64,000 nt of DNA from Sphingorhabdus sp. Its GTDB lineage: Bacteria > Pseudomonadota > Alphaproteobacteria > Sphingomonadales > Sphingomonadaceae. This document shows, piece by piece, positions 7,084 to 9,231 of this stretch. Below the pieces are notes generated by a model. It made no database searches. It was not told the DNA's origin and worked only from the letters and a program-made list of their open reading frames with translations. The stretch is from NCBI GenBank assembly GCA_040007915.1, contig JBDTUD010000008.1, positions 934 through 64,933 of the forward strand. The letters run 5' to 3'. Within the stretch, counting starts at the first letter, position 1; each line of letters opens with the position of its first letter. A program made the position numbers and the translations under genes.

Positions 7084-9231
7084 TTAAGAAATACCCGCCA
7101 CAATAGCAGCCCATTCGGCCTCATCAATGACCTGAATACCAAGCGTCGTCGCCTGTTTCAGCTTTGACCCCGCCCCCGGACCGGCGACCACCAGATTGGT
7201 TTTCGCGCTCACCGACCCCGCCGCCTTTGCGCCCAGCGCCTCGGCCTGCGATTTGGCCTCGTCGCGGCTCATCGTTTCCAGCTTGCCGGTGAAGACGATG
7301 GTTTTGCCGGTCCACGCGCTTTCGCGGATGTTGGAGACATAGACGGGTGGTTGCACTTCGCCCAGCAGATCATCCCACACCGCCAGATTATGCGGCTCGT
7401 GGAAAAAATCGCCCAAAGCTTCGGCCACGGTTGGCCCGATGCCGTCGATACTCGTCAATTCGGCAATCGCCGCCTCATCACCGGCAGCAACCCGCACCCC
7501 CAATTGCTTGATGGTGTCGAGCGTGAAAAAGTTTCGGACCAAGTCCTTCGATGTGCCTGCCCCGATATGACGGATGCCCAGACCAAACAGCAATTTCATG
7601 GGGTCGGGTGTTCGCTTGGACTCGATGGCTGCCAACAGGTTATCCACAGACTTTTCCTGCCAGCCTTCGCGCTTCAGAATGTCTGCGCGTCGGTTACGTA
7701 TCCGGAAGATATCGGCGGGACTTTCCAGCCAGCCCAGATCAAAAAATTCCTGAATGGTTTTCTCACCCAACCCCTCAATATCGAGCGCCGCACGGCTGAC
7801 GAAGTGGATCAGGCGCTGGACGCGTTGCGCGGGGCAGATCAGGCCGCCAGTGCAACGGACATCGACTTCGCCTTCCCCGGCAACCGCTTCGGAACCGCAT
7901 TCGGGGCAATGGTCGGGAAAGCTGTAAGCGTCGCGTGCCACGTCAGCGGTCAGGTTTTCGACAATCTGCGGAATGACATCCCCTGCCCGTTGCACGCGGA
8001 CACGGTCGCCGGGACGCACACCGAGCCGCGCAATTTCGTCGCGGTTGTGCAGCGTCACGTTGGACACCACCACGCCGCCAACCGTTACCGGCTGCAACCG
8101 ACCAACAGGAGTCAGCTTGCCGGTGCGGCCCACCTGAATATCAATGGACTCCAGTGTCGTTTCGGCGCGCTCCGCCGGAAATTTATGGGCAATCGCCCAA
8201 CGCGGGGCTTTGGCGACAAAACCCAGACGCTCCTGCCAATCGAGCCGGTCGACTTTGTAGACCACGCCGTCGATATCATAAGGCAGGTCCGCACGGCGAT
8301 GTTCGATGCCGCGATAATGCGCCAGAGCATCCTCTGCTCCTTCGACACGAACAAGCATCGGCGACACCGGCACCCCCCAAGCAGCAATTGCCGCCATTAC
8401 CCCGTTTTGCGTGTCAGCAGGCAGCGCACTGACCTCACCCCAACCATGCGCGAGGAAACGCAAAGGCCGCGACGCCGTAACGCTCGCATCCTTTTGCCGC
8501 AGGGAACCCGCCGCTGCATTGCGCGGGTTGGCAAACTGCCGCGCCTTTTCGGGGTCACCGGCGTCCGCGAGCAACCGCGCATTGAGAGCTACAAAATCCG
8601 CCTTGGCCATATAAATTTCGCCACGAATTTCGAAGACGGCGGGAATTTCGTTTCCGTTCGTGTCGAGCCCAGTCGAGACGCCGGGAGGTGACGCACAACC
8701 GATGGGTGTCTCGACTTTGCTCGACACGAACGGGGAAGTAAGCATTTGCGGGATATTCGAGATCGTCCGCACATTGGAGGTCACATCCTCACCCACCGTC
8801 CCGTCGCCACGCGTCGCCGCTTGCACAAGCACGCCATTTTCATAACGCAGCGAGCAGGACAATCCGTCAATCTTGTCTTCCGCCGTCAGCGCCACCGGCG
8901 CATCCGCCGCCAAATTCAAAAACCGCCGCACCCGCGCAACAAAATCTGCAACATCCACGTCGTCAAATGCATTGTCGAGGCTCATCATCCGCTTGGCATG
9001 GGTGATTTTTGCTAAGGGCGAACCTTCAACGGCAGCACCCACCGCCTGGTTCGGGCTATCGGCGCGGACCAGATGCGGAAACGCCGCCTCCAGTTCATTA
9101 TTGCGCCGAACCAGCGCATCATATTCAGCATCGGAAATCTCCGGCGCGTCCTCGGCATGATAACGCCGGTTATGATGCGCAATCACCTTGGCAAGGCGCA
9201 TCAATTCATTGGCAGCTTGGGCTTCGCTCAT
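7084..9231 (-). CDS. ligA: NAD-dependent DNA ligase LigA, carrying a 27-codon palindromic insert
   Basis: KxDG adenylation motif (EDKIDGLS), a Zn-finger CPECGS..C, HhH repeats and a C-terminal BRCT domain. The start is taken at [10 protein letters not shown]. Confidence 0.95.
8654..8733. repeat. 80-nt near-perfect inverted repeat embedded in frame in ligA
   Basis: Arm 8654-8682 pairs with arm 8705-8733 at about 27 of 29 positions, counting one G.T. The loop is 22 nt. The arm ends read CCGTTCGTG...CACGAACGG. Confidence 0.85.

Follow-up and report, generated by a model that had tools for sequence, protein, structure and literature searches.

An in-frame palindromic repeat in the ligA gene of a Sphingorhabdus sp., at a codon position where several repeat families are found among relatives

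How can the gene of an essential enzyme hold a long palindrome inside its catalytic domain, and what kind of sequence is it? This question is raised by ligA, the gene for NAD-dependent DNA ligase, in a 64,000-nt stretch of the Sphingorhabdus sp. contig JBDTUD010000008.1 (hereafter the window), where an initial annotation had described an 80-nt palindromic repeat inserted in frame and adding 27 codons. We conclude, with a probability of roughly 0.8, that positions 8654-8733 are one copy of a non-autonomous, dispersed palindromic repeat, which we call family A, that landed in frame in ligA at a site used by multiple repeat families.

The host gene is intact (Table 1). Its minus-strand open reading frame (ORF) spans 7084-9291, and the ATG at 9231 gives a 715-residue NAD-dependent DNA ligase in which the adenylation, OB, Zn-finger, HhH, and BRCT domains of Pfam are all present. 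Matches in the PDB included 2OWO (E. coli LigA) and 5TT5, at about E = 1e-171. The 2OWO alignment fell into two blocks that skipped query residues from about 165 to 188, with the flanks pairing with E. coli IPLKL and the segment that follows it. Minus-strand 8733..8653 is indeed read in the ligA frame, as had been proposed. The figure of 27 added codons stands relative to E. coli LigA, whose flanks in the 2OWO alignment agree with those initially given, whereas relative to the nearest relatives, in which the empty site reads IPQxLxGxxPAxFEIRGE, the insert amounts to 28 codons. The simplest parse of the junction in the window is CTT ACT, then 81 nt, then GGA. On this parse, the element would have landed with the codon that follows Leu164 on one side and the Gly of the L-x-G-x-x-P loop on the other, a short way upstream of nucleotidyltransferase motif III and ~10 residues upstream of the EIRGE motif (EVRGE in the E. 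coli comparison). The insert leaves the KxDG (K120-D122-G123) and EIRGE motifs in place, and both are conserved among 58 homologues, in which K120, D122, E201, R203, G204, and E205 are invariant.

The arms of the palindrome are 29 nt each, 90% complementary, and 22 nt apart. Folding of the coding-strand RNA agreed exactly with the pairing initially described, namely 15 bp, a 2-nt internal loop, and 9 bp, followed by more pairs, with an energy of -54.4 kcal/mol. None of 200 shuffled sequences was as stable (shuffle mean -27.9 kcal/mol, z = -8.73).

The 28-nt unit of the repeat, G-NNN-C TCGACTTCGCTC G-N'N'N'-C GAACGG, occurs twice in inverted orientation, and the resulting doublet is laid out like the paired repetitive extragenic palindromes (REPs) known as REPINs. 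One genome per bacterial species was scanned for exact matches to an arm pattern, TCGACTNNGCTCGACACGAACGG, whose 21 specified bases are by our own estimate expected to match less than once by chance; the pattern was present in at least 120 genomic stretches. Among the matches listed, to which the family-A counts given here refer, all record titles named Sphingomonadales or a broader group (Alphaproteobacteria, Proteobacteria, or Pseudomonadota). The genera included Sphingopyxis, Novosphingobium, Sphingomonas, Sphingobium, Erythrobacter, Sphingomicrobium, and Chakrabartia, and some genomes carried several loci, e.g. three in Sphingopyxis microcysteis. We extracted 108 complete doublets of 54-104 nt, with length peaks at 65, 72, 80, and 82 nt, spacers of varying length, and conserved ends, CCGTTCG...CGAACGG. 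The ligA copy falls in the 80-nt class, its arms match the commonest family-A arm sequence at 54 of 58 positions when compared by eye, and its alignment with an equally long Sphingopyxis copy (L062 1085-1164) spans the full 80 nt at 85% identity. The number of stretches that carry the arm, together with this identity, supports the earlier proposal that the insert is a dispersed repeat and not native ligase sequence.

Within single arms, a triplet and its partner covary (TGT/ACA, CAT/ATG, TCC/GGA, CCT/AGG, and TTT/AAA). Across 53 distinct arms, 86.8% of the cells of the 5-bp stem were paired; shuffles gave 68%, and sliding the partner column gave 25-48%. Double-sided stem changes numbered 61 compared to 23 in shuffles, and the compensatory pair changes included TA/CG and GC/CG/TA/AT. 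The two arms of one doublet often differ in stem variant, resulting in heterodimers, and single units are also common. Since the stem covaries even though the arms of a doublet differ, the conserved structure is the small stem-loop of each unit and not the long hairpin alone.

These properties bear on whether family A could be a classical MITE (miniature inverted-repeat transposable element), i.e. a deletion derivative of an insertion sequence (IS) moved by a DDE transposase via terminal inverted repeats. A size of ~80 nt, inverted symmetry over the full length, the lack of coding capacity, and the conserved ends would all suit such an element. However, target-site duplications of 2-6 nt occurred only at chance level between the left and right flanks of 106 family-A copies, no parent IS with family-A ends was seen, and single units and heterodimers are common. 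Moreover, the covarying stem is kept in each arm even where the arms differ, suggesting that what is recognised is a single unit in its folded form. We consider a MITE origin unlikely.

Family-A copies are nearly all extragenic, with ~106 of the 108 doublets lying outside real coding sequences. The two doublets that looked genic are both in one Pfam-confirmed hydantoinase/oxoprolinase gene of the Sphingomonadales locus L116, so genic copies are rare (2/108). This fused gene (about 3300-7300; Pfam Hydant_A_N, Hydantoinase_A, and Hydantoinase_B) holds, all in frame, two family-A-derived composites and, as a third insert, a segment resembling a palindrome (CEERSDEAIQ...LLRSARNDG). Other ORFs that read through family-A copies were rejected as mostly antisense or upstream artefacts of GC-rich DNA. 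A protein search with the doubled family-A translation returned only short spurious ORFs (Sphingopyxis, Novosphingobium, and Sphingobium) and was uninformative on how often real genes are hit. Read by eye from the consensus, family-A arms are free of stop codons in all frames and can therefore be accommodated in ORFs. Rfam contained no matching family, its sole match being a sub-threshold, chance microRNA hairpin.

Among loci L008-L127, many intergenic family-A copies end 5-25 nt upstream of a start codon (e.g. L074, L107, and L119). The outward flanks of the copies are C-poor and G-rich on both sides, with A or G at +1 in 79% and 40-59% G at +5 to +10; either the mobile unit extends past the conserved core or copies sit at ribosome-binding regions. 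In L012, L030, and L068, a second, different doublet (TTTCGAGCGAAGCCGAG...CTCGGCTTCGCTCG) is nested in the family-A spacer, which suggests that these elements insert into one another.

The site in ligA was compared among the 120 closest LigA proteins (78-86% identity, one of them named Sphingorhabdus). Their alignment revealed two length classes and one single large-indel site in the whole protein. The site was empty in 78 proteins, while 42 carried an insert or remnant, always at the same position and belonging to six families, A-F. Family A (peptide ..GVSTSLDTNG) occurs in the window and in P0027, P0068, P0069, and P0092, with a remnant in P0004; family B (KPLPFRGGVGVG...PNPSPEGEG) in P0002 and P0021; family C (SPSRLREGLGEG...PPTPPASGRG) in P0023 and P0113; family D (TVSAEPVEA...STGSGLTVSN) in P0013 and P0015; family E (VIPAKAGIS...TPAFAGVTG) in P0049, P0086, and P0087; and family F (KPSPLQGRGLGEGE...LSPEGER) in P0017 and P0059. 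The segment is therefore polymorphic for presence and absence among orthologues, as an insertion would be, and is not a homologous part of every alphaproteobacterial LigA.

At the DNA level, 11 ligA alleles contained seven full-length inserts, all of which were strong in-frame hairpins at the same place, and the L003 allele retained only a remnant, 18 nt of the right arm. The family-E insert is a canonical CGTC-1 REP head-to-head dimer, CGTC ATACCAGC GAAA GCTGGTAT. A tblastn-based sample of 80 more distant ligA loci (52-78% identity), picked via peptides elsewhere in the protein and independently of frame, added four large inserts at the site (L131, L134, L151, and L162). All four were in frame; the chance of this for four independent inserts is about 1%, (1/3)^4. 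The L131 insert belongs to a new CGTC-type family, those of L134 and L151 are similar to families B, C, and F, which are G-rich, and the inserts of family E, L131, and L162 carry a CGTC, TGTC, or TGTG tag. Families B-E were also found away from ligA in the fetched loci. In all 42 inserts of the protein set, and in all large inserts of the DNA sample, the frame was kept and stop codons were absent. Because ligA is essential, only frame-keeping, stop-free insertions survive.

These comparisons also address two further explanations for the segment. One is that it is a native, lineage-specific LigA loop that is palindromic by chance, or an artefact of assembly, and the exact allele is indeed on record in one assembly only. 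However, most of the closest orthologues lack the segment, an abundant repeat found mostly between genes matches its DNA, independent NCBI, JGI, and ENA assemblies have palindromes there that are likewise in frame, and the fold has z = -8.7; we regard this explanation as very improbable. The other is translational bypass, in which ribosomes would skip the hairpin as they do the coding gap of T4 gene 60 or mitochondrial byp elements. A very stable hairpin in a coding region resembles such elements, but a bypassed hairpin would not need to be in frame and stop-free, as every insert at the site is, and we give bypass hardly any credence.

In a neighbour-joining tree of the LigA proteins, built with the insert site masked, the families were scattered and often stood beside empty sisters. 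Proteins P0013 and P0015 (family D) stood beside P0028 (empty), P0021 (B) beside P0032 and P0033 (both empty), and P0003 (B) beside P0004 (A remnant), while one clade contained D, F, and A. Composite inserts were found in P0016, P0041, and P0120. Remnants in L003, P0008, P0048, and P0057 indicated decay via in-frame partial deletion. In two sister pairs with 93-94% overall identity, the sequence around the site was far more diverged than the rest of the gene; comparison of these two pairs revealed no duplication, the flanks being too diverged for clean junctions. Taken together, these patterns suggest that the same position has been repeatedly hit, emptied, or overwritten in related lineages by several unrelated palindromic families, and that partial in-frame deletions may leave short scars, producing a hypervariable loop.

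We examined the expected effect on the enzyme with an AlphaFold2 model built from a 58-sequence alignment (mean predicted local distance difference test score, pLDDT, 79.7). Residues 169-192 had a pLDDT <50 and no secondary structure, and the flanking strands, E145-149 and E199-208, were confident, with 10-residue blocks at 90-95. Mapped onto this model, as the initial annotation had envisaged, the insert is predicted to be a disordered loop. The left arm is read in different frames in different family-A inserts, as PFVSS... in the window compared to RSPRAQSR... in L001 and L004, and thus the peptide is not the conserved thing. On the best reading, the insert is a tolerated disordered loop. 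With arms devoid of stop codons, it would on translation add 27-28 residues to the enzyme surface in the form of a disordered, tolerated loop, and we infer that it is a passenger rather than an adaptation.

An adaptive role would require that the mRNA hairpin tunes ligA expression or stability, or that the loop is under diversifying selection, for example for escape from phage or toxin. The site is occupied in about a third of close relatives, its sequence diverges faster than the rest of the gene in the sister pairs, and an excess of REPs in replication and repair genes is reported by Di Nocera et al. 2013 (PMC3733652), all of which would fit such a role. However, most relatives do well with an empty site, the segment is predicted to be disordered, and the frames of the left arm leave no conserved peptide. 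We consider an adaptive insert improbable and retain the tolerated passenger as our interpretation.

Several observations weigh against the reading of the insert as one copy of a mobile, REP-like repeat at a recurrently used site. Within the 64-kb window, no further copies of the 80-mer were found, leaving a single family-A copy there. Neither the GTAG nor the CGTC tag of the described REP superfamilies is found in the family-A unit, which has G-NNN-C at its start and GAACGG at its end, and the 5-bp stem and conserved 12-nt loop of this unit differ from the 8-9 bp stem and 4-5 nt loop of classical REPs. A scan for the HUH/Tyr (HUH...Y) motif across ~1.5 Mb of loci and the window revealed no REP-associated tyrosine transposase (RAYT) or other transposase linked to family A. 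In the DNA of ~70 empty-site alleles, no nucleotide motif was conserved beyond what the conserved amino acids require. A pre-existing hairpin as the target was rejected, as the site lay at a median percentile of 0.51 when 44-nt windows were folded along 57 empty alleles. Finally, the neighbour-joining tree is without support values, which makes any count of independent events a rough one. If family A is nevertheless mobile, as we favour, it would probably move as single-stranded hairpin DNA, carried by a trans-acting Y1 (RAYT-like) transposase.

Why the same position is used so often has two possible answers: no part of this essential protein other than the loop may be permissive, or else the site, or its resident hairpin, may be a preferred target. 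Under the second answer, several families would recognise the ligA position or its resident hairpin and integrate site-specifically. Consistent with such active targeting, inserts are confined to one site although the protein has 700 aa and many loops, in five fetched alleles belonging to four families the Leu codon immediately precedes the insert, and the nested elements (L012, L030, and L068) and composite elements (P0016, P0041, and P0120) suggest that hairpins attract further elements. Sites in other genes point the same way. In the truB genes of L005 (1237-1297) and L006 (1871-1931), an AT-rich palindrome with 25-nt arms occupies residues 153-173 in frame, roughly where truB REPs are listed in PMC3733652 (S. 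alaskensis 169-177 and E. litoralis 164-190), and dnaE2 REP entries there cluster about residues 128-246 in three species. Thus, truB may be a second recurrent landing site, and because the truB and published dnaE2 positions recur across species, recurrent gene-specific sites may be general.

On the other hand, empty sites share no target motif, their tendency to form hairpins does not exceed that of the rest of the gene, a single target would have to serve three unrelated repeat types, and selection in an essential gene can mimic targeting. We hold active targeting to be possible, if short of probable. More doubtful still is that the L-x-G-x-x-P loop is a true landing pad, at which unrelated REP-type families integrate, excise, and replace one another with integration being mechanistically favoured, whether by capture at a resident hairpin or through a link between nick sealing and single-strand transposition. 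If this were true, repeat turnover would be the main source of sequence novelty in the LigA loop, and the site would, together with those in dnaE2 and truB, constitute a class of docking sites for REPs that are gene-specific and lie in genes of replication and repair. We infer instead that the preference for the site stems in part from its permissiveness and in part from resident hairpins, which attract, or are replaced by, further elements.

Table 1. Coordinates of ligA, its palindromic insert, and the other repeats of the window.
Feature	Position	Strand	Basis or remark
ligA, NAD-dependent DNA ligase, 715 aa, intact	7084..9231	minus	PDB matches and Pfam domains
27 in-frame codons, LigA residues 167-193	8653..8733	minus	ORF translation and allele alignment
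Family-A palindromic doublet, 80 nt, two inverted 28-nt units and loop	8654..8733	minus	Inverted repeat, fold, and family match
Arm at 5' end on coding strand, CCGTTCGTGTCGAGCAAAGTCGAGACACC; local 5-bp stem GTGTC/GACAC intact	8705..8733	minus	Inverted repeat and family covariation
Spacer (loop) between units, 22 nt	8683..8704	minus	Inverted repeat and fold
Arm at 3' end on coding strand, GGCGTCTCGACTGGGCTCGACACGAACGG; local stem with one C.A mismatch	8654..8682	minus	Inverted repeat
CGTC-1 REP head-to-head dimer, CGTC ATTCCCGC GAAG GCGGGAAT CCA and inverse	26112-26218		Matches the alphaproteobacterial consensus in PMC3733652
REP-like units, CGTC GCACCAGC GCAG GCTGGTGC CCA	39202-39289 (dimer); 40238-40264 (single unit)		
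REP-type inverted dimer, TGTG CTCCTGC GAAG GCAGGAG	40928..41001		Intergenic; unit layout as in the ligA insert of metagenome locus L162
Family-D palindrome	52532..52602		Intergenic; same family at the ligA site of relatives, e.g. L005

Some other repeats in the window are of types also found at the ligA site of relatives (Table 1). The arm ends of the ligA insert had been said to resemble those of the intergenic palindrome at 52532-52602. The two have a common unit layout, since family D and a third family (GCCCTTCGACAAGCTCAGGGCGAACGG) share with family A the order TCGAC...GCTC... followed by G/T-AACGG, but the intergenic palindrome belongs to a different family, D. The CGTC-1 dimer has its CCA tail and is of the same type as the family-E ligA inserts of relatives. 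On the minus strand at 39352-39672, a 106-aa ORF corresponds to only the N-terminal half of an IS200-like Y1 transposase (PF01797, positions 2-53/121, E = 8e-14). Directly upstream of this ORF is an inverted repeat of 27 perfect bp (39672-39742), and the REP-type dimer at 39202-39289 is just downstream. This truncated gene is the only Y1 transposase gene seen, and it is not flanked by family A. A further repeat type is present at 97-187 of L007, just downstream of pnp: a perfect palindrome with 31-nt arms (CCAGGGACTGTCCCCGAACGGGGACTGTCCC...), each of which contains an internal hairpin.

The interval between recN and ligA is variable (9236-9637 in the window, 9600-10001 in L002, and 444-1008 in L210 and L211). 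In L002 it contains an ABM-domain gene, and the window has a 133-aa unannotated ORF at the equivalent place. L210 and L211 have a PhdYeFM/ParE toxin-antitoxin pair there, L005 and L007 carry other small ORFs, and the interval is empty in L004 and L006.

The ligA insert suggests that an essential enzyme can hold a presumably translated copy of a selfish hairpin repeat inside its catalytic domain. Empty in most close relatives and occupied by several palindrome families or their remnants in others, the site amounts to a natural experiment. It makes testable whether the distribution of REP-type insertions reflects target choice or a selection filter, and what share of new loop sequence comes from insertion and imprecise loss. 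On the practical side, such repeats yield many spurious short ORFs in databases, and the length variation they cause in a marker gene can confuse alignments.

How does family A compare with known elements that place hairpins in genes? Bypass elements, such as those of T4 gene 60 and the mitochondrial byps, are stable hairpin insertions in coding sequence; because the frame and the absence of stop codons are kept in every ligA insert, ligA has no sign of bypass. Reviews by Delihas are said to describe MITEs that lie in frame in bacterial genes, as small non-coding inverted-repeat elements that do not break ORFs. MITEs carry the terminal inverted repeats of a parent IS and target-site duplications, neither of which was seen for family A. 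Rickettsia palindromic elements (RPEs), reportedly described by Ogata et al. in 2000, are palindromic repeats in frame in coding genes, including essential ones, with peptides compatible with the protein fold. The ligA insert behaves like an RPE, being in frame and without stop codons, yet it is not filed as one, since its host belongs to another order and its sequence probably to another family. RPE-1 is also said to be longer, at about 100-150 bp, and genic copies of family A are rare, at about 2/108.

The closest comparison is with REPs. In PMC3733652, REPs are sorted into GTAG and CGTC superfamilies and occur mostly as head-to-head dimers, and CGTC repeats are recorded in all orders of Alphaproteobacteria, including in S. 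wittichii, S. alaskensis, S. chlorophenolicum, and E. litoralis. The same text places RPE-4 and RPE-6 of Rickettsia in CGTC families and lists in-frame genic REPs in Sphingomonas wittichii, Sphingopyxis alaskensis, and Erythrobacter litoralis. The parallel to RPEs drawn in the initial annotation is sound as regards an in-frame, stop-free insert, but its novelty in a non-rickettsial lineage was overstated, as in-frame REPs had been published for Sphingomonadales. The intragenic excess reported there concerns DNA synthesis and repair genes (uvrA/B/C, dnaE2, polA, recB, and uvrD); the only DNA ligase it names, in the part consulted, is the ATP-dependent ligase of Opitutus terrae, and NAD-dependent ligA is absent from that part of its gene list. 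Literature searches returned nothing specific on family A or on a REP site in ligA in Sphingomonadales.

The family-E inserts at the ligA site, like the dimer at 26112-26218 of the window, have the tag CGTC, an 8-bp stem, and a 4-nt loop, as do the CGTC-1 REPs of PMC3733652. Family A resembles REPs and REPINs, whose units measure 20-40 nt, in its short (28 nt), imperfectly palindromic units with a covarying stem, in its inverted dimers, and in its many dispersed copies, which are mostly extragenic with occasional in-frame genic copies. It differs from them in its 5-bp variable stem, conserved 12-nt loop, and conserved GAACGG tail, and in having no GTAG or CGTC tag. In addition, PMC3733652, in the part consulted, does not describe ~eight families of three repeat types sharing a single codon position. 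An in-frame palindromic repeat inside a gene is thus of a kind already known. What appears to be new is family A itself, NAD-dependent ligA as a target, and a single codon position common to all these families, with empty and scarred alleles alongside the occupied ones.

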